Positions 11,996-45,367 are shown, counted from the stretch's first letter. The stretch is 64,000 bases of DNA from Thermodesulfobium acidiphilum (GCF_003057965.1 NZ_CP020921.1:1662916-1726915); one strand, 5' to 3'. Notes: generated by a model not told the origin, from the sequence alone. Program-made: numbers and translations.

Positions 11996-13372
11996 TTAAT
12001 GAATAAATATTGAGGGCAAAGTCCCCAATACTATTACCAATATCGAAAGACTAAGAACAAGCCCTTTGGTAAAGTCACTTGAAACAACTTCTGTTTCTAC
12101 ATCCGGTTCTTTCATGTACATATTCATTACAATCCTAAGATAGTAAAACGCACTTGTTATAGTCATCAAAACAGCAACAATTACCAGTGATGTAAAGCCA
12201 GCGTTCACAGCTGCCAAAAAAAGCTGAAATTTTGCAATAAAGCCTACTGTTGGTGGAATTCCTGCAAGGGAGAACATAAATATCATCATTATTCCAGCAA
12301 GATACGGATATCTTTTTGCAAGTCCATTGTAAGTAGACATGTCATCACCATTCTTCAACATAAATACTACACCAAATGCTCCAAGATTCATAATTGCATA
12401 CGCAATCAAGTATGTAAGAATTGCGCTTAGCCCCTCTTGAGTCCCAACAATTATCCCAAGAAGCATATAGCCTACGTGTGATACAGACGAAAATGCTAGC
12501 ATTCTCTTTACATTCTCCTGTGAAAGTGCTAAGAGATTACCGCCTACCATTGTAAGTATGGACAAAACAATAAGCACTGTTTTCGGCTCAACCCAGATTG
12601 GTACCAAACTTCCAATAAAAAATCTACCAAAAGCCAACAATAAAGCAGTCTTCGGAGCTGTAGCAAGAAATGCAGTTATTGGAGTTGGTGCCCCTTGATA
12701 GGTATCCGGAGTCCAAGCATGAAAGGGTATTACAGAAGACTTGAAACTAAAGGTTATAATCACTGCTATAACACCTACTATAAACATAGGATCCGTTAAA
12801 ACTTTGGCATAGGATAAAGACTTTGCTATATTGTAAAAATCTGTAGTACCCGTAGCGCCATAAATGAGCGCTATTCCATATAGCAAAATAGCAGTTGCAA
12901 CCGTTCCCATTAGATAATATTTAAGCCCTGCCTCACTTGAAAGTTTGTCCTTCCTATAAAAAGAACATAGTATATAAAGAGACAAAGACAAGGTCTCAAG
13001 GCCTAAATACAATATTATCAAGTCTCTTGAGCCTATCATAAAAAGCATCCCTACCACAGAAGTTAGTATAAGCGTTAAAAACTCTCCGTAACTGGTAGTG
13101 GGTATTGCAACGTCATCTATTGAAATCAGTATTACATAAATAGCTATCAAAATAATGATCCAGCTACCCAAAACGTCAATTGAATCTACTGAAAAAGATG
13201 AATTAAATATCGAAGCGCGCAAAGAGTACTTCCAGACCCCAGTTATTAAGAGCCCTAATATTGCAAGAATTGAAAAGGTTCTTCTATTTTTTATAAAAAG
13301 GGCTGAAAGAAAAATAAATATTGAACACGCAATCAAAAACAGTTCAGGAGCAATAACTTTAAACATCATCAT
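11996..13372 (-). CDS. nuoN: NADH-quinone oxidoreductase subunit N
   Basis: SSEAGLKYY, FKSSVIPFHAWTPDTYQGAP, KRMLAFSS, SLAGIPP. Confidence 0.93.
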   Translation of the reverse strand: MMMFKVIAPELFLIACSIFIFLSALFIKNRRTFSILAILGLLITGVWKYSLRASIFNSSFSVDSIDVLGSWIIILIAIYVILISIDDVAIPTTSYGEFLTLILTSVVGMLFMIGSRDLIILYLGLETLSLSLYILCSFYRKDKLSSEAGLKYYLMGTVATAILLYGIALIYGATGTTDFYNIAKSLSYAKVLTDPMFIVGVIAVIITFSFKSSVIPFHAWTPDTYQGAPTPITAFLATAPKTALLLAFGRFFIGSLVPIWVEPKTVLIVLSILTMVGGNLLALSQENVKRMLAFSSVSHVGYMLLGIIVGTQEGLSAILTYLIAYAIMNLGAFGVVFMLKNGDDMSTYNGLAKRYPYLAGIMMIFMFSLAGIPPTVGFIAKFQLFLAAVNAGFTSLVIVAVLMTITSAFYYLRIVMNMYMKEPDVETEVVSSDFTKGLVLSLSILVIVLGTLPSIFIH

Positions 13373-14877
13373 CTTAACCACCCCACTAAGGGTAAAGTAG
13401 TGTGAGCTATCATAGAAGAACTAAATTTTGTAGCTATCAAATGCGATACAGAAGATTGCATATAAGAGGTAAATACACCTGGCTGAAAACCTATATATAG
13501 TACCAGCAAAAGCAGTGGAACCAATGTCAATATTTCTCTTGGTCCAAGATCATATATCAAATCCTTAATTTTTTCGTTCAAGTTACCATATGCAACCCTA
13601 TAGTAAAGCCATATCATATAAGTTGTTCCAAGAATTATCCCCAAAACTGCAAAAGCTCCTAGCGGTATAAATCTAAGAAATGCGCCACAAAGAATCAAAA
13701 ACTCCCCCATAAACGAGTTAGTTCCAGGGAGCCCAATTGCAGCAAGAGTAAAAAATGTATAAAACAAAATAAATATAGGCAAGGTAGGCTTTAAGCCACC
13801 ATAGTCAGCGATCTGTCTTGTATGGGTTCTTTCATAAATCATACCAACCAGGCAAAACAAAGCACCCGTTACAATTCCGTGATTTATCATCTGCAAAATC
13901 CCGCCAAGCATCCCTATTTGAGTAAGTGTAAATAAGCCAAGAGTTACAAATCCCATATGAGAAACAGAGGAATATGCAATAAGCCTTTTAAGATCTGTCT
14001 GTTTTAGCGTTACAAATGCACCGTATACGATAGCTACTACTGATAAAACCTGAAGCAAACTCAAAAACATCATAGTAGCCTCAGGAAAAAATGGCATAGA
14101 AAATCTTAGGAATCCATATGCTCCAAGTTTAAGCAATACGCCAGCAAGTATTACGCTTCCTGCTGTGGGGGCTTCAGTATGAGCATCCGGTAGCCATGTG
14201 TGAAGAGGAAACATAGGAACCTTCACAGCAAAAGCAAGAGTAAAGGCAATAAACAAAAATATTTGCATGTTTAATGGCAGATTGAGCTTCATTAATTCAA
14301 GGATGTCAAACGTATGCCCACCTGTAAAATATAATACCAAGATGGATACAAGCATCAACACAGAGCCAGCAAAAGTAAATAAAACAAATTTAATTGATGC
14401 ATAAACTCTGTTCGGGCCACCCCAAACTCCAATTAGTAAAAACATCGGGATAAGCATAGCCTCCCAAAAAGCATAGAAAAGTAAAAGATCCAGAGATACG
14501 AAAACCCCAATCATTGAAGTTTCCATAAGAAGAATCATTATAAAAAACTCTTTTACCTTTTTGTCTATTGCTTTCCAGGAAACACTTACGCTTATTACAG
14601 TAATAAGAGTCGACAACAAAACAAACAAAACTGATATCCCATCTACACCTACAGCATACTTTGCGTTTATAAATGGTATCCAGGGATAAACCTCTACAAA
14701 TTGCATAGCGTGAGAATTCTTATCAAACAAAAACCAAAGGGGAAGAGAGATGAAAAAGTCTATCAACGCTACCAGCATTGCAGTTGATTTTATGAGCGTT
14801 GGATTTTTCATAAACAATATAAGAATGGCACCAATAACAGGTATTAAAAGAATAAGAGACAATATAGGAAAGTTCAT
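13369..14877 (-). CDS. nuoM: NADH-quinone oxidoreductase subunit M
   Basis: GVDGIS, FWEAMLIPM, VKVPMFPLHTWLPDAH, KRLIAYSSVSHMG. Confidence 0.95.
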   Translation of the reverse strand: MNFPILSLILLIPVIGAILILFMKNPTLIKSTAMLVALIDFFISLPLWFLFDKNSHAMQFVEVYPWIPFINAKYAVGVDGISVLFVLLSTLITVISVSVSWKAIDKKVKEFFIMILLMETSMIGVFVSLDLLLFYAFWEAMLIPMFLLIGVWGGPNRVYASIKFVLFTFAGSVLMLVSILVLYFTGGHTFDILELMKLNLPLNMQIFLFIAFTLAFAVKVPMFPLHTWLPDAHTEAPTAGSVILAGVLLKLGAYGFLRFSMPFFPEATMMFLSLLQVLSVVAIVYGAFVTLKQTDLKRLIAYSSVSHMGFVTLGLFTLTQIGMLGGILQMINHGIVTGALFCLVGMIYERTHTRQIADYGGLKPTLPIFILFYTFFTLAAIGLPGTNSFMGEFLILCGAFLRFIPLGAFAVLGIILGTTYMIWLYYRVAYGNLNEKIKDLIYDLGPREILTLVPLLLLVLYIGFQPGVFTSYMQSSVSHLIATKFSSSMIAHTTLPLVGWLR

Positions 14878-16656
14878 CTAAATCCCCCCTCTCAATAATA
14901 TAATTACACAGGCAAGAATAAGTATCCCGATAACAAACAGGATCATGTAATCCTGCAAGTTTCCTGTTTGAAGTTTTCTCAAAGTCTTGCTTACCGAATA
15001 AGTTGACCTTGCACTACCGTTTACTGTCCCGTCAACAACATATGTATCAACTCCCTTAAAAAACTTTGCAAAAGCCATCATAGGATTCAAAAATAGCCAT
15101 TCATATGCTGTATTTACTATTCTATCTTCAAATTCAACCAATACCTTCCTATCAATATACATAAATAATTGTAAACCCCTTCTATAAAACCAATCAAAAT
15201 CAAGATTTATAGCCCTCATTTCTGGCGGATAGATACCTGATAACATAAGTAAGGTGAATGCAAGGGCAGAAAATCCTAATAATTCAACCATCTCCATCAC
15301 ATGATTTGGAGCATACGGGATATAGTGAACTGGGTATGGAAGTATGGAATAAAGTGCCCATGGGTAAACCCCTATTGCTATACAAAGGAATGCAGCTATT
15401 CCCATAGCAAGTAGCATATGAAATGGTGCTTCTTTAGGTCTCAAGCCTGAATCATGTGAAAAAAATGCAAAAAATGGGATCTTAATACCAGAGTGATGGA
15501 AAACACCAGCAGAAGCAAACAAAAGCAAAAACCACGCAATAGTAAGACCTTGATGTGCAGATGCCGCAACTATCATAGACTTGCTTACGAAGCCACTCGT
15601 TAGAGGAACACCGGATATGGATGCTGCCCCAACAATACAAAAAGTTAAAGTCCATGGCATTGTCCTAAATAAACCGCCTAATTCAGTAGCCTTTATCTTT
15701 CCTGTCTGTTTCAAAACTGCACCCATAGACATAAATAGAAGCGCCTTATACAGTATGTGGGCAAACGCATGAGCTACAGTTCCATTCAGAGAAAGTTCAG
15801 TTCCTATCCCTATTCCGGTTACCATAAATCCAACCTGGTTAATTAGAGAGTAAGAAAGAACTTTTCTCATATCGTTTTCAATGACTGCAAAGAATATTGG
15901 AAAAGCTGTCATTATTACACCTGCAATAATTAATATTTCTGTTCCTGGAAAAGCTCTTGCAAGAGTATAAACTGCAGATTTTGTTGTAAATGCACTGAGC
16001 ACCACAGTACCAGCATAGCTTGCCTGTGGATAAGCATCTGGAAGCCATGTGTGTAAAAGTGGAAATACCGCATTTATACCAAACCCAATCAAAATGAGCA
16101 AAGATGCTAAATTCGTTAAGCCCAGATAATTAAATGCAATTGAACCTGTTTGATGAAAATGAAGAAGTATCCCACCCAATAAAAAAACTCCGCCTGTTAC
16201 ATGCATCAAAAGATATCTAAATGAAGCCTTTAGAGAATCCTCTCTCCCGCCTATTGCCACCAGGTAAGACGTGGACAAAGCCTTTATTTCCCAAAAGAAA
16301 AACAACGAAAAATAATCCCCAGCAAATACCACTCCCAGAGCAGCAGCCTCTGTCAAAAGTGCTGCTACGTGATGACGATAATCATCAAGTCCATAGGCAT
16401 AAATAGAGTTTAGCAAACTTATAATACAAAATATTAACCCAAAAACATATGAAAGTTGATCTATTCTTACTGGAGCTAGATCAAGTCCAATAAAGTGTAT
16501 GTTATAAACAAAGCCTTTTGGCAATATGAAGGCATTAAATAAAGCTACAGCCGGAACAATAATTATCCACCACTTCAAGACTTTGCCCCTAAGAAAAAGC
16601 GCAAAAAACGAACCGATCAAAAATATCAAAAATGGTGGTATGAAGCTAATTGTCAT
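14878..16656 (-). CDS. NuoL-position antiporter-like subunit (Mrp-type core with NuoL-type C-terminal lateral helix)
   Basis: PLLHTWLPDAYP, AFTTKSAVY, RKVLSYSLINQVG core; C-terminus VDTYVVDGTVNG...LRKLQTGNLQDY typical of NuoL. Confidence 0.85.
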   Translation of the reverse strand: MTISFIPPFLIFLIGSFFALFLRGKVLKWWIIIVPAVALFNAFILPKGFVYNIHFIGLDLAPVRIDQLSYVFGLIFCIISLLNSIYAYGLDDYRHHVAALLTEAAALGVVFAGDYFSLFFFWEIKALSTSYLVAIGGREDSLKASFRYLLMHVTGGVFLLGGILLHFHQTGSIAFNYLGLTNLASLLILIGFGINAVFPLLHTWLPDAYPQASYAGTVVLSAFTTKSAVYTLARAFPGTEILIIAGVIMTAFPIFFAVIENDMRKVLSYSLINQVGFMVTGIGIGTELSLNGTVAHAFAHILYKALLFMSMGAVLKQTGKIKATELGGLFRTMPWTLTFCIVGAASISGVPLTSGFVSKSMIVAASAHQGLTIAWFLLLFASAGVFHHSGIKIPFFAFFSHDSGLRPKEAPFHMLLAMGIAAFLCIAIGVYPWALYSILPYPVHYIPYAPNHVMEMVELLGFSALAFTLLMLSGIYPPEMRAINLDFDWFYRRGLQLFMYIDRKVLVEFEDRIVNTAYEWLFLNPMMAFAKFFKGVDTYVVDGTVNGSARSTYSVSKTLRKLQTGNLQDYMILFVIGILILACVIILLRGGI

Positions 16657-16891
16657 AATAATCCTCCTTGCGTTTTACAATCGGCCTTAGAATATACTTT
16701 GCTGCAAGAACCAATACTACACATGCAACAAAACCATAAACAGAGAAAAAGGAGGGAAATTCTTCAAAGCCGTATTCTGCCTTTTTGGGAACTATCAGAT
16801 CAAGAATCGTGACCACTGTCAGGAATGAAAACAAAACAATAAGCGTAATTTTTAAACTCTCTGGCTTTTCAAAAAATTTATATGGGTTCAA
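16646..16891 (-). CDS. Small 2-TM protein of Mrp-like antiporter clusters
   Basis: FFSVYGFVACVVLVLAAK..LRPIVKRKEDYYD; GGGAGG RBS. Confidence 0.75.
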   Translation of the reverse strand: MNPYKFFEKPESLKITLIVLFSFLTVVTILDLIVPKKAEYGFEEFPSFFSVYGFVACVVLVLAAKYILRPIVKRKEDYYDN

Positions 16892-16913
16892 CTCTTTGCC
16901 TCCCTTCTTTTAA

Positions 16914-17066
16914 TTATTGGTGTGAAACTATTCTATAATTTCCATTCAATAAAATGTAGCTAAGATACAACACACCTATAATAAACGCTATCGCAAAAAT
17001 AAGTGGAAAACCCGGTTTAGGATCGTGCTTTAACTCCATTAAAGGCTCTTCGTGATCTTCTTTCAT
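16914..17066 (-). CDS. 50-aa single-TM protein within nuo-like operon (not in ORF track)
   Basis: AAGGAGG RBS then MKEDHEEPLMELKHDPKPGFPLIFAIAFIIGVLYLSYILLNGNYRIVSHQ*. Confidence 0.75.
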   Translation of the reverse strand: MKEDHEEPLMELKHDPKPGFPLIFAIAFIIGVLYLSYILLNGNYRIVSHQ

Positions 17067-17107
17067 AAAACCCTCCTTAGAATTAAAACTCATAAATTTA
17101 ATTTATC

Positions 17108-18586
17108 TTAAAACCCAGCAAGAACCATTCTTGCAAGATGTAAAAATATGCCAGGAAACCATCCTAACAAAATACTAATGACAGCAGTTATAAGCAATGG
17201 CACAGCCATAAATGGATTTTCTATAATGTTTTTCGTATAGTGATGTGAGTGAGCATCAACTTTTTCCTTTTCAAAAAAAGCCTTATAAGCAACAGGCAAG
17301 AAATATCCAGCATTCAATACTGTGCTAAGCAGGAATACAAATAAAAGAATTGTAGAATGCATCTCCATAGTTCCGTTTAAAAGAAACCATTTTGAAATAA
17401 ACCCGCCCGACGAGGGAATCCCTATCATGCTCAGAGACCCTATAAAAAATGCAGCCATTGTTATAGGCATTCTCTTCGCAAGACCGCTTAGCTGGCTAAC
17501 CTCTGTCTTGTGTGAACAAACAATTATAGAACCTGCACAGAAAAATAATGTAATCTTAGCAAAAGCATGGGTAGTAATATGAAAAATAGCGCCCATAATT
17601 GCGCTAGGCGTTAGCATAAAAGCACCCAAAAGGATATATGATAGCTGGCTTATTGTCGAGTATGCAAGTCTTGCTTTCAAATTATCTCTTGTAAGAGCTA
17701 TGATAGAAGCAACAGTAATAGTAAATGCTGCCATAAAAATAGCTACATCTCTTCCCCATAAAGTAGCTAGAGTCTGTGCACCAAATATAAAAAGCGTAAC
17801 CCTAAGTACTGTGAAGACGCCTGTCTTTACAACTGCCACAGCGTGCAAAAGCGCACTAACAGGGGTTGGAGCTACCATTGCAGCAGGCAACCATCCGTGT
17901 AACGGCATGATTGCACACTTTGCAAAACCATATATAAACATTAGATATAAAATTGAAAGTAAAACTTTCTGGGCAATAGCTGCTTGAGGAAAGATACCAC
18001 CGTAGTGGAATTCTAAGGTACCTGCAAGATTATATGTTATAACAATTGCAGCAACCAAAAGAAGCTTAGCAGCACCCAAAAGATATATAACATATTTTCT
18101 CGAACCTCTTTTTGCTTCTTCGTCAGTCCCATGACCGACTAATGGATATGTTGCAAGAGTAAGTGCCTCGTAAAAAAGAAACATAGAAAATAAATTGGCA
18201 GAAAACGCTACGCCCATTGTGGTAGAAAGGGCCACTGCAAAAAATGAAAAATATCTTGTTTGATTAAGTTCTTTATGACCTCGCATATAACCAATAGAAT
18301 AAAAAGTTGTCAATATCCACAAGAAAGATGCGCCCACAGCAAACAAAAACCCTAATGCGTCAACCCTAAAAGAGAATGAAATTCCGGGCAATAGTTGGAA
18401 TAAAGTAAAATGATAATCTTTTCCTTGTAAAACTGACGGTAAGAGAGACAAAACAAGCAAAAACATTATTACGCTTGCAAGTACCGACCAAAACTCTCTT
18501 AAATTTTTATTTCTTTCACCACTATAAAAAATTAGCGGGATTGCAAGTAAAGGCGTTAATATTATTATCAGAGGTAAATATTCCAT
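17108..18586 (-). CDS. MrpD-like monovalent cation/H+ antiporter subunit
   Basis: FYEALTLATYPLV, KCAIMPLHGWLPAAMVAPTPVSALLHAVAVVKTG, KARLAYSTISQLSY. Confidence 0.9.
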   Translation of the reverse strand: MEYLPLIIILTPLLAIPLIFYSGERNKNLREFWSVLASVIMFLLVLSLLPSVLQGKDYHFTLFQLLPGISFSFRVDALGFLFAVGASFLWILTTFYSIGYMRGHKELNQTRYFSFFAVALSTTMGVAFSANLFSMFLFYEALTLATYPLVGHGTDEEAKRGSRKYVIYLLGAAKLLLVAAIVITYNLAGTLEFHYGGIFPQAAIAQKVLLSILYLMFIYGFAKCAIMPLHGWLPAAMVAPTPVSALLHAVAVVKTGVFTVLRVTLFIFGAQTLATLWGRDVAIFMAAFTITVASIIALTRDNLKARLAYSTISQLSYILLGAFMLTPSAIMGAIFHITTHAFAKITLFFCAGSIIVCSHKTEVSQLSGLAKRMPITMAAFFIGSLSMIGIPSSGGFISKWFLLNGTMEMHSTILLFVFLLSTVLNAGYFLPVAYKAFFEKEKVDAHSHHYTKNIIENPFMAVPLLITAVISILLGWFPGIFLHLARMVLAGF

Positions 18587-18589
18587 ACT

Positions 18590-18892
18590 CTAACCTCTCA
18601 TATCCTTGAATAGATCTATCTTTACAGTCTTCTTAAGCCTATAAGCATTTATTAAAAGTGCAAGACCAGTAGCCATTCCTGCTCCTGCATTGGCAATAAT
18701 CAAAAGGGCAATAACCTGCCCCATAAAATCTTGCATATAGTGGCTCAAGGAAATTAGCGTTATGTTTACAGCATTTAACATAAGTTCTACACAAAGCAGC
18801 ATCATAATAATGCTTCTCCTTGTCATAAATCCAATTAAACCTATTGCAAAAATACTGGCAGCAAGTATCAGATATGCATTTAATGGCACCAT
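18590..18892 (-). CDS. nuoK: NADH-quinone oxidoreductase subunit K
   Basis: RRSIIMMLLCVELMLNAVN, 100 aa, 3 TM. Confidence 0.93.
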   Translation of the reverse strand: MVPLNAYLILAASIFAIGLIGFMTRRSIIMMLLCVELMLNAVNITLISLSHYMQDFMGQVIALLIIANAGAGMATGLALLINAYRLKKTVKIDLFKDMRG

Positions 18893-19408
18893 CTACTCAT
18901 CACTCCTTTTTCCGGCTAGGACGATAGCGGCAATCATTGGGACAAAAAGCACTACGCCCATAATAATAAGCGGCAAATTAGCCTCAGAATAAAAAACCTG
19001 TCCCAAAAGCTTAGCGTCTGAGACCTTGTTTACCAAATCTATAGAAAATTTTCCTGTAGTGTTCAAATACGACGCCTGAAGTACAATTGCTAACACGCCT
19101 AAAACACAGAAAACAAGGAACGCCTTTGGGATTGACAAAGAGCTTACATCGCTAAGGTGATCTTCGTGTTTTACGTTTAAAAGCATAATCACAAAAATTA
19201 GCATTACAAGGATTGCTCCAGCGTATACTATCATCTGAATCATAGCAAAGAATTCAGCATTCAAAAAAAGATATATGCCTGAGATGTGAACAAACAAAAG
19301 AAGTGTCCACAAAACTGCATGTATATAATTTTTTCTGGTGATTACAATCAAAGATATAATTATAGAAGCCAAGGCAAAGTATGAAAAAAACAAAACTGGT
19401 ATGTTCAT
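18893..19408 (-). CDS. nuoJ: NADH-quinone oxidoreductase subunit J
   Basis: LNAEFFAMIQMIVYAGAILV..FVIMLL. Confidence 0.93.
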   Translation of the reverse strand: MNIPVLFFSYFALASIIISLIVITRKNYIHAVLWTLLLFVHISGIYLFLNAEFFAMIQMIVYAGAILVMLIFVIMLLNVKHEDHLSDVSSLSIPKAFLVFCVLGVLAIVLQASYLNTTGKFSIDLVNKVSDAKLLGQVFYSEANLPLIIMGVVLFVPMIAAIVLAGKRSDE

Positions 19409-20406
19409 GGTAAGAACACCTTCTTTATAATCATAATAATAAACAAGTTTGTTAGGCTAAGGGGCAATAGAAACTTCCAACCAATCTTAAGTAACTGATC
19501 GAATCTGTATCTTGGCACAGTACCTCTCACCCATATATAGAAGAACATAAAGAAATAAACTTTGAGCAAAAACCAGACTATGCCTGGCACCAAGTTTAAA
19601 AATGGAAGCAAAGAAGTTAAAAAGGGAGGAAGCGTCCAACCGCCCAGGAAACAGATGGTTAGCATTGATGACATAACGTACATTGCAGAATATTCTGCCA
19701 GGAAAAATAGCCCCCATCTAAAGCCAGAATACTCAGTCAGGTATCCTGCAACCAACTCTGTTTCAGCTTCAGGCAAATCAAAAGGAGTTCTATTGGTCTC
19801 TGCAAAAGCACAAACAAGAAAAACAAAAAAACCAATTATTTGAGGAAATATGAACATTCCCCAGGGCAACTTCTCTTGGGCATAAACAATATCAGAAAGA
19901 TTAAGAGAACCAGACATAATCAAGACTGCAAGGAGCGCAACGCCCATGGGTATTTCATAACTTATTATTTGGGCGCTGGATCTAAGAGAACCTAAAAATG
20001 CATATTTCGAATTGGAAGAGTATCCAGCAATAATTATTCCGTATACTCCAAGAGATCCCATAGCCAGAATAAGAAGCAAGCCTACATTTATATTTGCCAG
20101 TACCCAACCTGCTGCATATGGAATGACTGAAAAAGATGTCATTACACAGGTAACCACTATTACAGGAGCAATTGTAAACAAAACTTTATCGGCTCCAAAT
20201 GGAATATTGTCTTCCTTAAAAAAGAGTTTTATAAGATCTGCAAACGGTTGAAACAGGCCTAAAGGACCAACTTCAGTAGGTCCAAGCCTTGCTTGAATAT
20301 GTCCCAAAATTTTTCTTTCAAAATATACTGCATAAGCAACGTGTAGTAACAAAACCCCCAAAACTATCGCAACTTTGACAATTAAAATAACAACATCTAA
20401 CAGCAT
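19405..20406 (-). CDS. nuoH: NADH-quinone oxidoreductase subunit H
   Basis: ERKILGHIQARLGP, AETNRTPFDLPEAE, PRYRFDQ. Confidence 0.96.
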   Translation of the reverse strand: MLLDVVILIVKVAIVLGVLLLHVAYAVYFERKILGHIQARLGPTEVGPLGLFQPFADLIKLFFKEDNIPFGADKVLFTIAPVIVVTCVMTSFSVIPYAAGWVLANINVGLLLILAMGSLGVYGIIIAGYSSNSKYAFLGSLRSSAQIISYEIPMGVALLAVLIMSGSLNLSDIVYAQEKLPWGMFIFPQIIGFFVFLVCAFAETNRTPFDLPEAETELVAGYLTEYSGFRWGLFFLAEYSAMYVMSSMLTICFLGGWTLPPFLTSLLPFLNLVPGIVWFLLKVYFFMFFYIWVRGTVPRYRFDQLLKIGWKFLLPLSLTNLFIIMIIKKVFLP

Positions 20407-20408
20407 AT

Positions 20409-20945
20409 CTACCCTCCTCTCCTGACTTCGTATTTAGAGAGGTCCTGAATTTTCTTGAGAAGCTTTTCGTGATCTTCCCAAACCCCTATACCCTTAAGAG
20501 GGTAATCTTTCCTTAGTGGATGCCCAACCCAATTGTCTGGCATAAAAATTCTCCTTAGATTAGGGTGGCCTCTAAATTTTATACCAAACATATCATAGCA
20601 CTCACATTCGTGCCAATTTGCCCCCTTAAAGATACAGGTTACACTGTTTACTTCCATGTCATCTTCTGGAACCTGAATCTTCACCCTGATCCTATGTTTA
20701 AATTTAATAGAATATAGGTTATAAACTACTTCATATCTAACATCCCTTAATTTATAATAATCCACCCCGCACAAGTCGGCTAAGTGATCAAATTTTAAAT
20801 TTTCGTGTCCTTTTAAAAAAAGAATGACTTCAGTATTATCATCTTTTGGAACATTAATGCTGAGCTGACCAAAATTAATTTCTTCAGATAACACCCTTTC
20901 TTTAAATTCTTCTTTCACTATCTTTAAAATCTCTTCTACAGTCAT
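20409..20945 (-). CDS. nuoC: NADH-quinone oxidoreductase subunit C
   Basis: [34 protein letters not shown]. Confidence 0.95.
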
Positions 20946-21334
20946 TGCCTCTTCCTCCTATGATACATATCGAATGCACCCTTCTTCCAGTCATAAATAT
21001 AGCCGGCAATAAGTATTGCTATAAATATCAGTACACTAATCATGGCTACAGAAGAAATGTCGTCAAAATTTATTGCCCAGGGATAAAGAAATGCAATTTC
21101 AACGTCAAATACAACAAATAGCATAGCAATAACGTAAAATTTTACTGAAAATCTCTCACCCGTTTCTCCTATCGGATCGTTTCCTGATTCGTATGGTATC
21201 AACGATTCAGAATATCTTCTCTTTAATCTAAAAAAACTTCCAAAAACCAAGATCCCAACTGCAAAAAGAAAAGCAGCTATCATCATAAATAAGACTGGTA
21301 AGTATCCTGTAGGAACATATGAACCCGGCGTCAT
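20942..21334 (-). CDS. nuoA: NADH-quinone oxidoreductase subunit A
   Basis: [32 protein letters not shown]. Confidence 0.95.
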
Positions 21335-21909
21335 GATGCAATCTCCTCATTCTTTTTCTTAATTTCGATTGGTTTCTCATTTCTCTTTTGGGGGGTAAGC
21401 ATCTTTTCTGGCATTCCAGGTGGCCTCCAAAACTTGTTGAAATAAAATTCTCCAGGATAATTAGCTAAAAACTCATCCCAATTAGAAAGAAGTTTTTCCT
21501 TGTTAAACAATAGATCAGACCTTTTATCCCCAAGATATTCGTATTCTTCAGTTAGAACAAGTGCATTTACCGGACAAACCTCCACGCAATAGCCACAATA
21601 AATACATCTGGTGGCATCTATAGAATATTCTTTTAATACTCTTGCGTTATTTTCATCTTTGCCCACTTCAATCTTTATGCAATTTGATGGACAGACAGTT
21701 TTACACCTCAAGCACATAATACAGCGCTCTTTGAGTTTATCCGGATCTCTTACGAGAGCTTGTCTGCCTCTAAAACCTGGAAATGGTTGTCTCTTTACAT
21801 GTGGATAAAGCCTAGTAACAGGTTTTTTCAGCATAGTTCTAAAAGTTACAGAAAGACCCCTGAACCATTCTACTAAAAGTACATCTCTAATTAATTTTTG
21901 TATCCTCAT
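21331..21909 (-). CDS. nuoI: NADH-quinone oxidoreductase subunit I
   Basis: FRGR, two CxxCxxCxxxCP ferredoxin motifs. Confidence 0.93.
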   Translation of the reverse strand: MRIQKLIRDVLLVEWFRGLSVTFRTMLKKPVTRLYPHVKRQPFPGFRGRQALVRDPDKLKERCIMCLRCKTVCPSNCIKIEVGKDENNARVLKEYSIDATRCIYCGYCVEVCPVNALVLTEEYEYLGDKRSDLLFNKEKLLSNWDEFLANYPGEFYFNKFWRPPGMPEKMLTPQKRNEKPIEIKKKNEEIAS

Positions 21910-23165
21910 TTATCCGACTCCCCTAATACAATATCAATAGAACCTATAATTGCGATAATATCTGCTACCATGTGTCCGATGGACAAAACTGGCATTGCAG
22001 AAATGTGGACAAAAGAAGGAGTTCTAAGCCTTAATCTGTATGGTTTCCCGGAACCATCGCTTACAACATAAATGCCAAGTTCACCCTTTGGCACCTCTAC
22101 TGCACTATACAAATCACCAGTATTTATCATCTTTCTTTCTTTTGAGAGAGTAATAAAAGCACTTGCAACGCTTCCAACTGCTTCAATCTGTCTTGGCGGC
22201 GTTGGAATTACTAAATCTGGAGTATCGTCGCTAACTGTCTCCCCATCTGGGAGTTGATCTAAAAGTTGTTTTATTATCTCATTAGACTGTCTTAACTCTT
22301 CCATCCTGCAAAGATATCTATCGTAAACGTCTCCATTTTTACCTGTTGGAACATAAAATTTTACAAAAGGATACGCATCATAAGGTTGATCCCTTCTAAG
22401 GTCATAATCGACTCCTGAACCTCTAAGACAAGGACCGGTAAGACCCCAGTTAAGAGCGTCTTCGGCTGAAATTTGTGCAATGCCAATAGTTCTCTCCATC
22501 CATATAGGGTTCTTGGTAAGAAGCGTCTCGTATTCTTGTATCTTTGAAGGAAATACTTTTGTGAATTCTCGCAAACTTTGAACGAATTCAGGGCTAATAT
22601 CGCATCTTACCCCACCAATCCTCGCAAAATTTGTAAGAAGCCTCGCACCCACAGTCATTTCAAAGAGATCCAAAAGCCATTCTCTTTCCCTAAAGCAATA
22701 GGTAAAGATCGTCATTGCTCCTATATCGAGTGCATGAGTAGCAAGCCATAAAAGATGACTACATATCCTTGACATCTCACAGAATATAGTTCTTATAAAT
22801 TTCGCCCTAATAGGAGCTTCAATCCCAAACAGTTTCTCAATAGCAATAGCATAAGCGGTGTTGTTGGCAGGGCTTGATATATAATCTAATCTGTCCGTAA
22901 GAGGAAGTGCTTGAGCATAGGTCTTAGATTCCATTAACTTTTCTATCCCTCTGTGTAAATAACCTATATGAGGTTCCATACCAACTATTTCTTCTCCATC
23001 AAGTCTAAGCACTAATCTAAGCACACCGTGAGTTGCAGGGTGCTGAGGACCCATGTTCAGAATCATTTCTTTCGTATCGAGATTATCCTCAATTTCTGGA
23101 AGCATACAAACGTTTTGATCAGTCAAAATCTGTTCTTTAATATCTTTTATCTCCATGCTCCCCAT
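21906..23165 (-). CDS. nuoD: NADH-quinone oxidoreductase subunit D
   Basis: [37 protein letters not shown]; no Ni-binding CxxC. Confidence 0.96.
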
Positions 23166-23683
23166 ACCATCCTTTCCTTCTTTATCTTCTGCTGGAGATA
23201 TAAAAGAGCATGTAACAGCGCTTCAGGTCTTGGAGGACATCCAGGAAGATACACGTCAACAGGAACAATCTGGTCTACTCCCTGCAAAACTGAATAGGTA
23301 TTAAAAATTCCCCCACTATTTGCACAACTTCCCATTGATATTACATATCTTGGTTGTGGCATCTGATCATAAACTCTTCTCAAAACTGGAGCCATTTTTA
23401 GTGTTACTGTCCCAGCAACAATCATAAGATCTGCTTGTCTGGGCGATGCCCTAAACAGGATACCAAATCTGTCAAGGTCGTTATGCGGTGCACCAACAGC
23501 CATCATCTCAATAGCACAACACGCAAGGCCAAAAGTCATAGGCCAGAGGGACGATACCCTTCCCCAGTTAACAACCCAATTAATAGCCTTGTCGATGGGA
23601 GAGACAATAGTGTTTAATGCCGGAATTGCTTTTACTCCATCAGCAATTTCTATTTCTCTTTCCTTTACCTCGTTTTCGTTCAT
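23147..23683 (-). CDS. nuoB: NADH-quinone oxidoreductase subunit B
   Basis: [30 protein letters not shown]. Confidence 0.97.
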
Positions 23684-23798
23684 ATCAACCTCCTTGACAG
23701 TTACTAGAAATTAAATACACACAATAAATAGTGCAATAAATAACACTAAGTGATAAAAACTTTAAAATATTAACATTTATAATACTATCATTTTAGAA

Positions 23799-24305
23799 TT
23801 ATTTTTTCAAAGGTGATATATTCTTCGCAAATTGCTCTCTTTTAATTTGTGATGCCTCACTGGGAGATATGAATTTCAAAGCACCTGTCGTACATCCTGT
23901 AACACATGCAGGCTCTAGCCCTTGATCGATTCTATCCTTACAATAGTCACATTTCATAACCTTACCCGTCTCTGAATTCCACTGGGGCACTCCCCAGGGA
24001 CAGGCAGTAATACAGTTCTTACAACCCACGCATAAATCTTCTTTAACGTAAACAATACCATCTTTTGCTCTTTTTATCATCGCACCAGTGGGACATGCAT
24101 ATACACACCATGGTTTTTCGCAATGAAAACATGGCATAAAAACAAAGTGCATTCGGGGAACTCCTTTTACCACCTGCGGACCGGTTGGAACTATTCTGCA
24201 CAGTTTTGCACCTTCTGGAGCATTGTTCTTGGTCTTACAGTGAAGTTCACAGGCATAACAGCCTATACACCTTTTCTGATCTTGAAATATATAATACTTT
24301 CCCAC
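23799..24305 (-). CDS. 4x[4Fe-4S] electron transfer subunit (PsrB/DmsB/NrfC-like)
   Basis: CIGCYAC, CFHCEKPWCVYACP, CVGCKNCITACP, KCDYC..PACVTGC. Confidence 0.93.
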   Translation of the reverse strand: MGKYYIFQDQKRCIGCYACELHCKTKNNAPEGAKLCRIVPTGPQVVKGVPRMHFVFMPCFHCEKPWCVYACPTGAMIKRAKDGIVYVKEDLCVGCKNCITACPWGVPQWNSETGKVMKCDYCKDRIDQGLEPACVTGCTTGALKFISPSEASQIKREQFAKNISPLKK

Positions 24306-24377
24306 ATTACTCCTCCAAAAATTTTTTATTTAAAAACTACAAGCTCTTTTCTAAATAAAATAGATAATTATTAATAA

Positions 24378-26462
24378 TTATTTCACCTTCTTAACAGAAA
24401 CTGTACATTCCGTAAATGGGCAGTTTCCGCCAATTGCAACCTTTACAAGTCCCTTTTGAAGTCTTACATCAGACACTCCCTTGCCAAAAGACCTGGTTCT
24501 TAAGGGTACATCATCACCAAAGCCATGAAGCATAAAGAGTACATCAGGATGTATATATTTCGTAAGTTTTGCTTTTATATATTGCTTTTCTCCTTCATTT
24601 TCTACCTCAAGAAGATCCCCTTCTTTTATTCCAAGTTCTACTGCTCTATCTTCATGTATATATAGATGATTTTCACTCACATACTCGTTTAATAGCCTAT
24701 TGTTTAAAGTAGTTCTGCCCTGAGTGTGCAAAGCGCACTTACTGGTAACTAATCTAAACCTCCCTGGTTTCAGTTCTATTGGTTTCTCATATGGGATAAA
24801 GGAGGGAATACCTACATCTTCTAATTTTTTAGAAATGAATTCTATTTTGCCAGAAGGGGTTTTAAACTTCAAACCATCAACCCTATCCCACATTATAGGC
24901 TTATCTACCAGTTCAATGTAGCCTTTTTCATTAAAATCTTCTAATTTGTATCCAGTCCCCTCCAATTGCCAGGCAATTAGCTCTTCTATGCTATTGTAAG
25001 GAAAATATTGACCCACTCCAAGTCTGTTTGCAAGTTCTTTGAATATCCACCACCTTGGTCTGGTATCAAACCTTCTTTGAACTGCTGCCTGTCTTAGAAT
25101 GTAACCTGGCTTTGGACCATTTCTAGCTATAACATGATCCGTTCTCTCAAGATATGTATCTTCCGGCAAAATCACATCAGAGAACCAACCTGTCTCGCTG
25201 TAATTTATATCAATAGATACTAATAAATCCAATTTACTAAAAGCGTCTCTAATATAATCTGGATCTGGTAAAGAAGCAAGCGGATCGTGTCTGAATACAA
25301 TATATGCCCTTACAGGATAAGGCTCATCGGTAAGAAGCACGTGAGCTAACTCCTGAGCTAATCCCCATTGCTCGCTAAGATGGGGATATTTTGTCCCACA
25401 ACCGTCAAATCTTGGATCCTTTGGCTTTGGGACCTGAGCTAAAAGCGACTTTAGGGGCTTGCCTACAGCTTCAGGACCTTTATTAATAATTAAACCTCCC
25501 TTTGCCTCATATGCACCCAGAAGTGCATTAAGAGAACAAATAGCTCGTCTTAAATAAAAATCATTTGAGTACCACGCAGTCATCCAACCAAGGTGAAATA
25601 TTACAGATGGCTTGGCATTTCCTACATCGTGAGCTAATTTTACAATTTCGGCTGCAGGGATACCAGTCTCATTTTCAGCAAACTCAGGAGTATAGAGCTT
25701 TACAAAGTTCGAGAGTTCCTCAAAACCTACGGTCCACCTCTTAACAAAGTCAGCATCATAAAGAGAATCCTTTATAATCACGTGTATTAAGGCTAGAGCT
25801 AAAGCATAATCAGTTCCTGGGTTTATCAAAAAAAACCTATCAGCTTTTGCTGCAGTATAGTTCCACCTAACGTCAATTTGAACAAGTTTCCCACCATTTT
25901 CAATCATATCTATAACGCTTTTTGCCTCCCCCGTAACAAGAGATTCAAGCAAGTTCCTGCCAAAACTAACTAGATACTTACAATTTTTATAATCATATGT
26001 AATACCATTTCTTGCAAGACCCGCTACAGAAAGATGAGCATTGTGAATAGAATTAGAGCATGTTGCATGATGATTAAAGTAATTTGGAGATCCGATTGCA
26101 GCAAGAAAAGTTTTTTCAAATTCGGTAATTGCTCCTCCTCTATCAGACAATACAACGCTCTTCGCCCCATATTTATCAATTATATTTTTCAAATTGTCTG
26201 CTACATAGTCTAAGGCTTCGTCCCAAGAAACACTTCTCCATTTACCAGACCCTCTTTCTCCGTCACGTATTAAAGGAGTCTGAGGCCTTTCTGTATCATT
26301 TAATAGAGCTTTGCCTGCAGCTCCTCTTGGACATAAATGATACCCCCCTAAAAGATAGGGATTCCCCCAGATGTGTTCAACTTCATTTCCATTGACATCA
26401 ACCACAATAGGGCATCTTCCCGTACACATTGCACAAATACTATAAACCCTCTTGGTACCCAT
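24378..26462 (-). CDS. Molybdopterin oxidoreductase catalytic subunit (PsrA/PhsA-like), no Tat signal
   Basis: CAMCTGRC..CPRG FS0 cluster, SWDEAL, HHATC, PGTD, SDVILP, HTQGRT; GGAGG RBS before ATG 26462. Confidence 0.9.
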   Translation of the reverse strand: MGTKRVYSICAMCTGRCPIVVDVNGNEVEHIWGNPYLLGGYHLCPRGAAGKALLNDTERPQTPLIRDGERGSGKWRSVSWDEALDYVADNLKNIIDKYGAKSVVLSDRGGAITEFEKTFLAAIGSPNYFNHHATCSNSIHNAHLSVAGLARNGITYDYKNCKYLVSFGRNLLESLVTGEAKSVIDMIENGGKLVQIDVRWNYTAAKADRFFLINPGTDYALALALIHVIIKDSLYDADFVKRWTVGFEELSNFVKLYTPEFAENETGIPAAEIVKLAHDVGNAKPSVIFHLGWMTAWYSNDFYLRRAICSLNALLGAYEAKGGLIINKGPEAVGKPLKSLLAQVPKPKDPRFDGCGTKYPHLSEQWGLAQELAHVLLTDEPYPVRAYIVFRHDPLASLPDPDYIRDAFSKLDLLVSIDINYSETGWFSDVILPEDTYLERTDHVIARNGPKPGYILRQAAVQRRFDTRPRWWIFKELANRLGVGQYFPYNSIEELIAWQLEGTGYKLEDFNEKGYIELVDKPIMWDRVDGLKFKTPSGKIEFISKKLEDVGIPSFIPYEKPIELKPGRFRLVTSKCALHTQGRTTLNNRLLNEYVSENHLYIHEDRAVELGIKEGDLLEVENEGEKQYIKAKLTKYIHPDVLFMLHGFGDDVPLRTRSFGKGVSDVRLQKGLVKVAIGGNCPFTECTVSVKKVK

Positions 26463-26674
26463 AGTCTCCTCCAAAATAATTTAAGATATTATAAAACAAT
26501 TTATTTAAAATTGACAGAAAATTTAGACAATGTTTTTTCTTAAGCTATTATATATAATAAGTTACAATTATTAATTAATATATATTAATATTTAAGTGTA
26601 ACAAAAAATTACTAAAAAGTTTATAAGAATTATTTATTATCAAATTTAAAATAGTGATACGATAAGGAGTTATT

Positions 26675-27194: not shown

Positions 27195-29369
27195 ATGAAC
27201 ATTATTCAGAATTTGATTCAAAATTGGTCCGTGAGAAAAAAACTTCTTTCAATTACTTTGCTCAGCTTTTTAATCTTTGGGCTAACACTTATAACCCTTA
27301 CTTCATTTCAATTTTTTGATAATGGGCACAAAAATGTCAAAGAAAAGCTTCACTACGCAATGGATGCATCAAATGAACTTTTAAAAAGCTATATGTTAAG
27401 TTCAAAAAATATGGCAAAACTTCTTTCGGATAGAGAAAGCGTGATAAAGGGCGTAGAAACAAAAAATTTTGACTTATTAAAAACCGTACTTGTTCCTTAC
27501 ATAAAAGAATATAAAGATTTATATATAGTTGTCACTGACAACAAGGGAAATGTAATAATCAGAGCGCACTCTTTAAATACTCCAACAGGTGATTCCATAG
27601 CAAATCAACTAAATATCCAAAAGGCAATTAAAGGAGAAAATACCGTTGGTATTGAAGAAGGGAAGATAGTCAAACTTTCTATTCGTGCAGGTTCTCCAGT
27701 GAGAGACAATAGTGGCAACATCATAGGCGCTGTGAGTGCAGGTTATACGATTTTTGACTCTAACAGGCTTGCAAGCGAAATGAAAAAACTACTAAACATA
27801 GATACTACGTTTACCTTTGGCAATGAAGTAGTTACTTCAACACTTAACAAGGATTTCAAAGGTCAAAAAATTCCTCAAGACATTTATGACAGGCTAACCA
27901 GGGGCGAAAGCTTTATTCAGAGGTTCAATTTTCTTGGTCATGATTATTATAACGTGCTAGTTCCTCTTAAAAACTCAGACAACAAAGTTGTAGGTTCTTA
28001 TATTCTTTCATATCCGCCTTCTCTTATTGACGGTCCTATTTACAACTCTTTAATAATACAAATAATTACGATTATTATTTGTCTCTTAATCGGTCTTTTG
28101 ATAATTGGTATAGGAATAGAATTTATCTTGATTAGACCACTTTCAAGAGCAAAGTCTGATATTGACTGTCTTTCCACAGGAGATCTGTGTTCTGATATAA
28201 GCGTCTCATCTAAGGATGAAATAGGCCAAATTGCTCAGGCATCTTTAAAACTTAGGGATAATTTCTCTGAAATATTACACGATATAAAAGACGTTTTAAA
28301 CGATCTGTCGCAGGCCTCAAACAAATTATCAAACCTCTCTTCTGATGCCAGATATGCCTCAAGCGAAAGCGCAAACTATGCAGAAAAAACTGCTCAAAAT
28401 TCTGAAGAATTGAGCCAAACGTTAGAAAAATTAAATAATCACGTAAATATTTTGCTTGGCGCTATAGAATCAATTGCAAAAGGCGCTGAAGACCAAGCAA
28501 ATTCAGCTTCAAGCGTAGCTGAAAAAATGGGCAAAATTTCAGAAAACGCTCAAATTCTGCTCAAGATTACTAAAGGAGTAGGATCTCTTGCAACAGAAGC
28601 TGAAGAGAAATCAAAAATGGGATCTTTACTAATAGAACAAAACGATTCTTCATCCTTACAAATTTTAAACTCTGTTGAAGACCTTTCAAAGACTATTCTA
28701 TCTCTCTCAGAGAGATCAAACGATATAGTAAAAATAGTAGATATCATATCCCAAATTTCCGAGCAAACAAATCTCTTGGCCTTAAATGCTGCAATTGAAG
28801 CAGCAAGAGCTGGCGATGCAGGAAGAGGTTTTGCAGTAGTAGCAGATGAAGTAAGAAAGCTAGCCGAAGAATCTCAAAGAGCAGCTAAAAATATTGGAGA
28901 ACTGATAGAACAAACCAGAAAAGAGACGACGTTGGCTTCAGATGCAATGAAGGCCACCCTCGAAGAGGTAAAAAAGGGTAGAAATATAACTAAAGATTCA
29001 AAAGAAGCGTTTGAACAGATAAGCCAAAATATCGAAAGGTTGCTTAAAGAAATACAATCGGCTCAAAGCAACGTAGCCAAAGTTGAAGAAGATATTAGAA
29101 GTATAGAAACCAATATCAGTAACCTTGCGGCCCTTTCACAAGAATATACCGCTAGCACTCAAGAAATGAACGCCTCCACAGCGGAGCTAAAAAAAGATAT
29201 AGATGGTCTCTCAGAGATTGCAAAGGAAGGTTCAATTGCAGCCAGTGAAGAATCCGCTCTTGCAAAGGAGTTGAGTTCTATGATGGGAGATGTAGAAAGC
29301 ATTTCAAAGAAATTAAACACTAACGTAGAAAAACTAACCGAAAAAACCTCAAAATTTAAAATATTTTAA
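27195..29369 (+). CDS. Methyl-accepting chemotaxis protein (Cache-TM-HAMP-MCP)
   Basis: Two TMs, [44 protein letters not shown]. Confidence 0.97.
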
Positions 29370-44860: not shown

Positions 44861-45049
44861 CCCTTTTACCTCCTTAAATAAAACTAGTAGAATTAACTAA
44901 AGTCACTTTAATTATCAATTTTACTACCAGTATATTAATTTTAAATAAGACCTATAATAGGTTTAAAAATATAAAATAAATAGTATGTTTCTATTACATT
45001 GTTTATTAATAAATCATATATTTGTGGCTACTTCATGTTAGAATATTAT

Positions 45050-45314
<265 letters not shown>

Positions 45315-45367
45315 CTAAATAATACTTAATACTTATTTTTAATTTTAATATTTCGAGAAAGGATGTT

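Follow-up and report, generated by a model that had tools for sequence, protein, structure and literature searches.

Our combined findings suggest that a cytoplasmic molybdoenzyme and its iron-sulfur (Fe-S) partner serve as the electron-exchange module of the only complex I of Thermodesulfobium acidiphilum, with thiosulfate as the likeliest couple and with the proton-motive force making the reaction reversible, a reading that we judge to have about an even chance of being correct. The genes for the two proteins, which we call MoA and FeSB, lie at the head of a cluster of nuo genes without nuoE, nuoF and nuoG in a stretch of 64,000 nucleotides (nt) of this genome (GCF_003057965.1 NZ_CP020921.1:1662916-1726915), hereafter the window. 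Assembled in this way, MoA-FeSB-Nuo would probably be a thiosulfate:menaquinone oxidoreductase able to run backwards on the proton-motive force. A preliminary description of the window had proposed that a Psr-type enzyme feeds a complex I lacking NuoEFG, and comparative genomics supports that proposal; physical docking, substrate, direction and stoichiometry are our inference.

The MoA-FeSB-nuo cluster

Pfam and NCBIfam assignments revealed 16 densely packed genes on the minus strand, running from 26462 to 11996. They are listed here in the direction of transcription together with the signal-like sites at either end.

26488..26517, minus strand: promoter-like site upstream of MoA (CTGTCA, 18 nt, TATAAT; 10/12 matches, weak)
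24378..26462, minus strand: MoA, PhsA/PsrA-like catalytic subunit without signal peptide, of the Mo/W-bis(pyranopterin guanine dinucleotide) (Mo/W-bisPGD) type, 694 amino acids (aa) (Pfam, NCBIfam and PDB matches)
23799..24305, minus strand: FeSB, DmsB/PsrB-type subunit with four Cys4 motifs, 168 aa (Fer4_11, 16 Cys)
23147..23683, minus strand: nuoB, cluster N2 subunit (Pfam/NCBIfam; CCxxE motif, C120 and C149 invariant)
21906..23165, minus strand: nuoD, quinone-reducing type without NiFe cysteines (Pfam/NCBIfam and motif comparison)
21331..21909, minus strand: nuoI, 2x[4Fe-4S], expected docking partner of FeSB (Pfam/NCBIfam)
20942..21334, minus strand: nuoA (Pfam/NCBIfam)
20409..20945, minus strand: nuoC (Pfam/NCBIfam)
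19405..20406, minus strand: nuoH (Pfam/NCBIfam)
18893..19408, minus strand: nuoJ (Pfam/NCBIfam)
18590..18892, minus strand: nuoK (Pfam/NCBIfam)
17108..18586, minus strand: extra antiporter-like subunit, MrpD/NuoL-like, 492 aa, no lateral helix (PRK08375.1-1, 643 bits, cut-off 663)
16914..17093, minus strand: 59-aa open reading frame (ORF) with one hydrophobic stretch (conserved in the genus, weakly in loci L103 and L106)
16646..16891, minus strand: 81-aa ORF with two hydrophobic stretches (homologues between both L-like genes in L014, L103, L105, L106 and L121)
14878..16656, minus strand: nuoL-type subunit, 592 aa, with C-terminal lateral-helix region (PRK12668, 700 bits, over cut-off; NuoL models align to the C-terminus)
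13369..14877, minus strand: nuoM (Pfam/NCBIfam)
11996..13381, minus strand: nuoN (Pfam/NCBIfam)
12006..12032, minus strand: terminator-like hairpin at the nuoN 3' end (10 pairs, then a T-rich tail; pattern match only)

The gene coordinates, the single strand and the two gaps given in the preliminary description proved exact in an ORF check: 72 nt separate MoA from FeSB (24306-24377) and 115 nt separate FeSB from nuoB (23684-23798), and a pattern scan found no terminator-like site in either gap. A GGAGG ribosome-binding site precedes each of MoA, FeSB and nuoB. The promoter-like scan returned 53 sites against 52.8 expected from shuffled sequence, so that such matches are weak evidence. An Rfam scan of the window found no riboswitch before MoA; its sole match was a bacterial large signal recognition particle RNA at 45049-45315 on the plus strand (156 bits).

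The described gene content also stood, except that an additional antiporter-like subunit and two small membrane ORFs had been overlooked. The MrpD-like gene and the 59-aa and 81-aa ORFs lie between nuoK and the NuoL-type gene, bringing the antiporter-like subunits to four, and the same series of three (L-like gene, 81-aa ORF, NuoL-type gene) is seen again in L014, L103, L105, L106 and L121 as well as in the genus. The extra subunit may provide an additional proton path.

Recurrence of the linkage

Within the genus, MoA was present in 4/4 genomes at 91-100% identity. Linkage to nuo was found in 3/3 assessable genomes, the contig of the fourth breaking inside FeSB, and both other genomes with enough contig shared the identical 16-gene order. 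We then fetched 80 loci by MoA similarity, one genome per species, and annotated them with the window proteins. Six of the 80 had nuo directly after FeSB on the same strand. Two are from Caldimicrobium (L008 and L011), with the nuo order B-D-I-A-C-H as in the window; the others are a Nitrospirota locus (L012), a Ca. Desulfobia locus (L014), and L015 and L041, which have the order A-B-C-D-H-I. In these relatives, FeSB is either 7-131 nt from the first nuo gene or overlaps it. The linkage is thus shared by two nuo gene orders and several phyla.

A sample of 251 Desulfobacterota genomes was also surveyed. A cytoplasmic-type MoA (E <= 1e-165) was found in 64 of them and a NuoD match (E <= 1e-100) in 160. 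At least 9 of the 64 MoA-bearing genomes (G041, G072, G110, G134, G166, G227, G284, G291 and G293) carry MoA and NuoD on one contig and one strand, with MoA 1.0-2.3 kb upstream. This lower bound was obtained by comparing coordinates by eye among the NuoD matches listed, which were all but 33. Fetching 20 regions confirmed these nine and added two: L116, with a more divergent MoA (551 bits), and L121, whose contig opens with FeSB while MoA stands at the end of another contig. Overall, signal-less A and B genes directly precede a nuo cluster without EFG on the same strand in the window and in 15 further loci. The co-occurrence survey proposed in the preliminary description therefore bore the linkage out, showing it to be conserved within the genus, among Desulfobacterota (Caldimicrobium included) and in Nitrospirota.

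Several candidates were rejected during these searches. In L119 and L120 (G106:C5 and G140:C3) MoA lies ~13 kb from a nuo cluster of NuoCD-fusion/NuoG type, and the MoA-FeSB pair is accompanied by a divergent TauE gene, which lies between them, and by a 206-aa gene of unknown function; the two are close together but not linked as an operon. L068 has a divergent and distant nuo cluster and no FeSB was found there. L023 had only a 27-bit ferredoxin match, leaving seven true nuo-linked rows in the MoA tree described below. The 592-aa NuoL-type subunit was dropped as a marker of this pump type because it is too common, with homologues (E <= 1e-70) in 121 of the 251 genomes.

An Fe-S gene at the head of related nuo clusters

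The same question can be viewed from the side of the pump. We examined 19 of the 20 best NuoD matches (>= 495 bits) in the Desulfobacterota sample. Eleven of these 19 nuo clusters are headed by MoA-FeSB, seven by a compact Fe-S gene alone, and one, L118, by neither. The seven (L110-L115 and L117, in regions of G110, G291, G072, G143, G235, G174 and G205) have a Fer4_11/DmsB-type gene of 137-185 aa with 16-17 Cys directly before nuoA of a second NuoEFG-less nuo operon; upstream of it are PGK, TIM and CoA-binding-protein genes, and no catalytic partner is encoded nearby. In the NuoD tree all of these clusters form one clade (support 98), within which those headed by the Fe-S gene alone make up their own subclade, and the bare L118 nests among the MoA-led clusters. 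The nearest relative of the window NuoD is that of the Nitrospirota locus L012 (62% identity). Since 18 of the 19 clusters are led by a DmsB-type Fe-S gene, clusters of this complex I clade usually open with a gene for a four-cluster protein, and these heads are the best indirect sign that a protein of this type is part of the pump.

The only complex I of the genome

All 11 core subunits (NuoA, B, C, D, H, I, J, K, L, M and N) are present with Pfam and NCBIfam scores over cut-offs. NuoD was described as lacking the NiFe cysteines, and indeed its C-terminus (DIVLGESDK) is free of Cys. Its best PDB matches are mitochondrial 49-kDa subunits (424 bits), and the His and Tyr motifs of the quinone site are kept. 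NuoB retains the tandem CCxxE motif, and its four cluster N2 cysteines, C55, C56, C120 and C149, do not vary across 11 sequences.

The genome is a single contig of 1.77 Mb with 99.99% completeness, in which no match to Complex1_51K (PF01512) or 2Fe-2S_thioredx (PF01257) and none over cut-off to NuoG (TIGR01973) was found. The absence of nuoEFG noted for the window thus holds genome-wide, making this the 11-subunit kind of complex I and not an NADH dehydrogenase. Two further NuoD-like loci belong to group-4-hydrogenase-like clusters, so the window carries the only complex I of the genome. These clusters, with NuoB/C/D/H/I/L-like genes, are outside the window at 568518-575578 and 956711-963917, and in the former the NuoD-like frame is broken into a pair of ORFs (574021-574896 and 574900-575118). 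With one complex I and a genome devoid of NuoE, NuoF and NuoG, the pump needs another redox partner.

The preliminary description also stated that a PsrC/NrfD anchor is absent. This is correct for the MoA-FeSB-nuo cluster, in which no NrfD gene was found, but one NrfD/PsrC-type gene had been missed elsewhere. It is the genome's single NrfD match and is part of a TtrBCA-like cluster that is complete in itself and lies apart from nuo. Its neighbors there are, on one side, a TtrB-like gene and, on the other, a 1025-aa TtrA-like gene whose product starts with MNMNRRDFLK and bears a twin-arginine translocation (Tat) signal. Flanked in this way, NrfD has its own partners. That cluster is outside the window, at 363003-368381, and all its scores are under the Ttr equivalog cut-offs (564 vs 1750 and 250 vs 416). 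Of the outcomes that the preliminary description named as refuting its reading, neither a cognate psrC or nuoEFG elsewhere nor a lack of conserved linkage was found. The genome also contains dsrA (541 bits).

MoA and FeSB proteins

MoA has the Pfam domains Molybdop_Fe4S4, Molybdopterin and Molydop_binding. Its best NCBIfam family is PhsA (NF012032 equivalog), followed by Fdh-alpha (235 bits) and DmsA (205 bits), with ArrA (140 bits) and TtrA (60 bits) further behind. As its PhsA score of 555.2 bits is below the cut-off of 694, we did not file it as PhsA proper. The closest solved structure is Thermus PsrA (2vpw_A, 389 bits), ahead of FdhH (1aa6_A, 153 bits). The FS0 motif is intact, and C10, C13, C17 and C135 do not vary among 24 sequences. 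Cys135 aligns with Cys173 of Thermus PsrA, the Mo ligand of that enzyme. MoA therefore combines the features of the Psr/Phs clade, namely the FS0 motif, the molybdopterin and dinucleotide-binding domains, and a Cys at the Mo-ligand position.

MoA lacks a twin-arginine peptide, as had been proposed. Its ATG at 26462 is followed by MGTKRVYSICAMC, an in-frame stop lies 15 codons ahead of the first cluster Cys, and there is no RR motif. Furthermore, the PhsA profile and Thermus PsrA align to MoA only from their own positions 41 and 37, past their signal peptides.

In FeSB all 16 cluster Cys are invariant among 15 nuo-linked homologues, and its PDB matches are 2vpw_B (85 bits) and HycB (7z0s_B, 53 bits). 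A single prediction run for a complex of NuoD, NuoB, NuoI and FeSB gave a median of 0.54, compared with 0.00 and 0.10 when FeSB was replaced and 0.42 when NuoD was replaced, a result that counts neither for nor against binding.

MoA phylogeny and exchange of partner modules

We built a MoA tree from the window and 75 of the 80 loci, having dropped five whose frame was shorter than 600 residues or contained X. The phylogeny, an analysis that the preliminary description had also suggested, separated a signal-less clade of 58 rows, which includes the window MoA, from a Tat-bearing clade of 18 rows, with support of 100 for each. All 18 members of the Tat clade have RRxF-type motifs; their genes are followed by NrfD in 12 cases and by cytochrome b in three, the remaining three having neither or lying at a contig edge. 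In the signal-less clade, FeSB is followed by a GltD-like gene in 30 rows, by nuo in seven including the window, by neither in 15 and by a contig edge in four, the last two rows being L068 and L023; NrfD was found after MoA-FeSB in none of the 58. An upstream stop no more than 25 codons from the first Cys leaves no room for a signal peptide in the window and in 26 loci of this clade. The Tat-motif pattern flagged two members, L016 and L062, and both look like false matches.

The GltD-like partner of these 30 loci is an Fe-S flavoprotein of 660-770 aa with Fer4_20, Pyr_redox_2 and Fer4 domains (e.g., L010:12929-14914 and L029:12656-15905), and in nine of them a 2Fe-2S/4Fe-4S protein follows as well. 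Its domains suggest that the enzyme, when GltD-linked, takes a soluble form served by NAD(P)H. Judged by gene context, the same catalytic pair is found with three alternative predicted partners: quinol through NrfD on the periplasmic side, cytoplasmic NAD(P)H, and complex I. The nuo-linked rows occupy four or five places in one 37-row subclade, and with such scattering the linkage is either ancestral and lost or gained repeatedly. Two kinds of gene are seen upstream repeatedly, whether a locus is nuo-linked or GltD-linked: those for TauE/SafE-family permeases, and one of 206 aa that has no Pfam match. The TauE homologues of the window's genome are located away from the cluster.

Proposed mechanism

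We propose that MoA acts as a cytoplasmic Mo/W-bisPGD enzyme of the polysulfide/thiosulfate-reductase clade. Electrons would pass from MoA through FS0, the four FeSB clusters and the NuoI clusters, reach N2 in NuoB and end on menaquinone at the NuoD/NuoH site, or would travel the opposite way. FeSB would dock on NuoI as HycB docks on HycF in formate hydrogenlyase (FHL), taking the place held by NuoG/NuoEF in NADH-dependent complex I and by HycB in FHL. The likeliest couple would be thiosulfate/(sulfite + sulfide), in which case sulfite would be freed in the cytoplasm, where the DsrAB of this genome could reduce it. We favor thiosulfate because of the likeness of MoA to PhsA and PsrA, the linkage to TauE/SafE permeases, the presence of dsrA and published proteomic reports.

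In thiosulfate respiration or disproportionation the complex would run in reverse, the proton-motive force acting through the four antiporter-like subunits to lift electrons from menaquinol to thiosulfate. By textbook values, on which the H+/2e- argument below also rests, the standard potential of thiosulfate/(sulfite + sulfide) is about -400 mV and that of menaquinone about -75 mV. The thiosulfate couple being far more negative, the complex would run near equilibrium. Transferring two electrons from menaquinol to thiosulfate would cost about what four protons deliver at the usual proton-motive force, which would fit a complex I in reverse and perhaps the fourth antiporter-like subunit. Salmonella PhsABC is reportedly powered by proton-motive force. 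More tentatively, and aware that it may well prove wrong, we extend this scheme to the whole clade: a NuoEFG-less complex I with a DmsB-type four-cluster protein as its input socket, which here would carry a thiosulfate reductase and work reversibly with four antiporter-like subunits.

Alternative explanations

A serious, if less probable, alternative is that MoA-FeSB and Nuo are co-regulated neighbors and not one complex. MoA-FeSB would then be a soluble reductase fed by ferredoxin or another carrier and the 11-subunit complex I a ferredoxin:menaquinone oxidoreductase, and their genes would be neighbors only because both serve the respiration or disproportionation of sulfur compounds. Several observations are in its favor and weigh against a joint complex. 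Most signal-less MoA-FeSB pairs are not beside nuo (30/58 with a GltD-like partner, 15/58 with neither), so MoA-FeSB can work without Nuo. An example is Dissulfuribacter thermophilus, whose PhsAB-like genes DITHS69_2027/2028 are far from nuo DITHS69_2265-2274 (PMC13490349), and PhsAB without PhsC is treated as soluble in the accessible text of two reports (PMC13490349 and PMC13047784). Conversely, seven sister nuo clusters carry the Fe-S gene alone and L118, of the same clade, has neither an Fe-S nor a Mo gene in front, so this clade of pumps can work without MoA. The AT-rich 115-nt gap before nuoB contains a promoter-like match (23810-23782, 9/12) from which nuo could be transcribed alone. 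Furthermore, the genomes counted are kin and not independent events, and we found no experimental study in the literature showing MoA-FeSB bound to Nuo. Nonetheless, the order of MoA, FeSB and first nuo gene is fixed, with 7-131 nt or an overlap before nuo, in two nuo orders and several phyla; a DmsB-type Fe-S gene opens 18 of the 19 nearest nuo clusters examined, which is hard to explain if this protein is outside the pump; and the operon has no other electron-input gene. Given that the linkage recurs in the genus, in at least 9 of 64 MoA-bearing Desulfobacterota genomes and in Nitrospirota with this fixed order and these short gaps, an adjacency by chance and without functional meaning, for which only the general fact that neighbors need not interact can be cited, is extremely improbable.

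The clusters with an Fe-S gene alone (L110-L115 and L117), which have a four-cluster protein, no Mo gene and housekeeping genes upstream, raise a different option, in which FeSB alone is the pump input, as a polyferredoxin adaptor, and MoA is a facultative side inlet or outlet of what is mainly a ferredoxin:menaquinone pump. We consider this unlikely. The Fe-S proteins of those clusters are shorter (137-185 aa) and score 85-99 bits to FeSB compared with 220-290 bits for true FeSB, the FeSB type always pairs with a Mo subunit, and MoA is the first gene of the window operon. The architecture may also be as we propose but with another substrate, such as polysulfide or elemental sulfur, tetrathionate, arsenate, selenate or another oxyanion; we see this as possible though somewhat doubtful. 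MoA scores under the PhsA cut-off (555 vs 694), its closest match of solved structure is that of a polysulfide reductase, deposited under the name thiosulfate reductase, and sequence does not distinguish Psr from Phs according to the authors of one report, in its accessible text (PMC13047784). However, thiosulfate induces cytoplasmic PhsAB-like enzymes in related systems, according to the available portions of proteomic reports; TauE/SafE permeases are linked to the pair; a cytoplasmic DsrAB could take the sulfite; and the ArrA, TtrA and Fdh models score far lower (140, 60 and 235 bits).

Comparison with known systems

The 11-subunit complex I, or cyanobacterial NDH-1, has ferredoxin as its donor and shares with the window the NuoABCDHIJKLMN core without NuoEFG (NuoD vs NdhH, 6hum_H, 343 bits). 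It differs in that the window operon encodes a Mo enzyme and a four-cluster subunit, has no NdhS/O-type genes, and has four antiporter-like subunits rather than three. FHL-1 of Escherichia coli (FdhF-HycB-HycCDEFG; 7z0s/7z0t) likewise combines a cytoplasmic, signal-less Mo-bisPGD enzyme with a multi-cluster subunit and a NuoI/B/D-like arm. However, in the window the acceptor is a quinone-reducing NuoD and not a [NiFe] hydrogenase, which places it outside the FHL/group 4 family, the membrane arm is a full NuoA/H/J/K/L/M/N arm with an extra antiporter-like subunit, and MoA is of the Psr/Phs and not the Fdh clade. The nearest characterized A and B subunits are those of PsrABC from Thermus thermophilus (2vpw-2vpz) and PhsABC from Salmonella, which share FS0 and the Cys at the Mo-ligand position; unlike them, the window enzyme has neither a Tat peptide nor an NrfD/PsrC anchor and is predicted to be cytoplasmic rather than periplasmic.

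The coupling idea itself is already in print, so the reading is sound but not new. For Thermodesulfovibrio sp. N1, Frank et al. 2016 proposed coupling of PsrAB (THER_0567/0568) with Nuo (THER_0569-0582), an arrangement in which, likewise, a Psr/Phs-family A gene and an Fe-S B gene directly precede a complex I cluster without NuoEFG (PMC5165239). That organism is of a different lineage, and orthology with the THER cluster is deduced from its published description; a search of 40 other genomes showed no close relatives of the window's genus. In its accessible text the paper offers the proposal without test or survey, and later papers, including PMC12142623, PMC13490349, PMC9751629 and PMC13047784, do not take it up in theirs.

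As far as their available text goes, studies of sulfur disproportionators tie signal-less A and B subunits without C to thiosulfate by proteomics. D. thermophilus has a cytoplasmic PhsAB-like enzyme whose level is strongly raised when thiosulfate is disproportionated (PMC13490349), and in Desulfolithobacter dissulfuricans, where PhsB-1 is GF1_30500, the adjacent Nuo proteins GF1_30510 and GF1_30520 were found only under this condition (PMC9751629). Upregulation of nuo genes in sulfur disproportionation is described for Desulfurivibrio dismutans (PMC12142623), and Desulfurella amilsii has a thiosulfate-induced PhsA that is said to carry a Tat signal (PMC6378623). By our tree of database loci, the PhsAB-like enzymes of D. 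thermophilus and D. dissulfuricans probably belong to the signal-less clade of MoA. The papers on them treat the enzyme as soluble or name no partner for it.

In the accessible text of papers from 2025 and 2026, the donor to NuoEFG-less complex I is still called "some unknown electron-donating oxidoreductase" (PMC12142623), and PhsAB without PhsC is read as a possible loss of quinone interaction (PMC13047784). If MoA-FeSB plugs into the pump, this would explain how a cytoplasmic thiosulfate/polysulfide reductase reaches the quinone pool and why Nuo proteins rise during disproportionation, and would add a sulfur-compound module to the NADH, F420H2, ferredoxin and formate/H2 input modules. If the clade-wide socket exists, complex I in reverse would link the quinone pool to cytoplasmic thiosulfate cleavage in both respiration and disproportionation. 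New in this study are the finding that NuoEFG is missing throughout a complete genome, the sister clusters headed by an Fe-S gene alone, the three-way exchange of partners, and the extra antiporter-like subunit with its two small membrane ORFs. The window is also a compact test case, in a small complete genome with one complex I, no NuoEFG and an operon conserved in the genus.

Neighboring genes

Divergent from MoA, at 27195-29369 on the plus strand, is a gene for a methyl-accepting chemotaxis protein. Its sensor domains are sCache_3_2 and sCache_3_3, and it may sense the substrate of MoA. A histidine kinase with the same sensor type sits upstream of MoA in the Nitrospirota locus L012. [quoted passage not shown]

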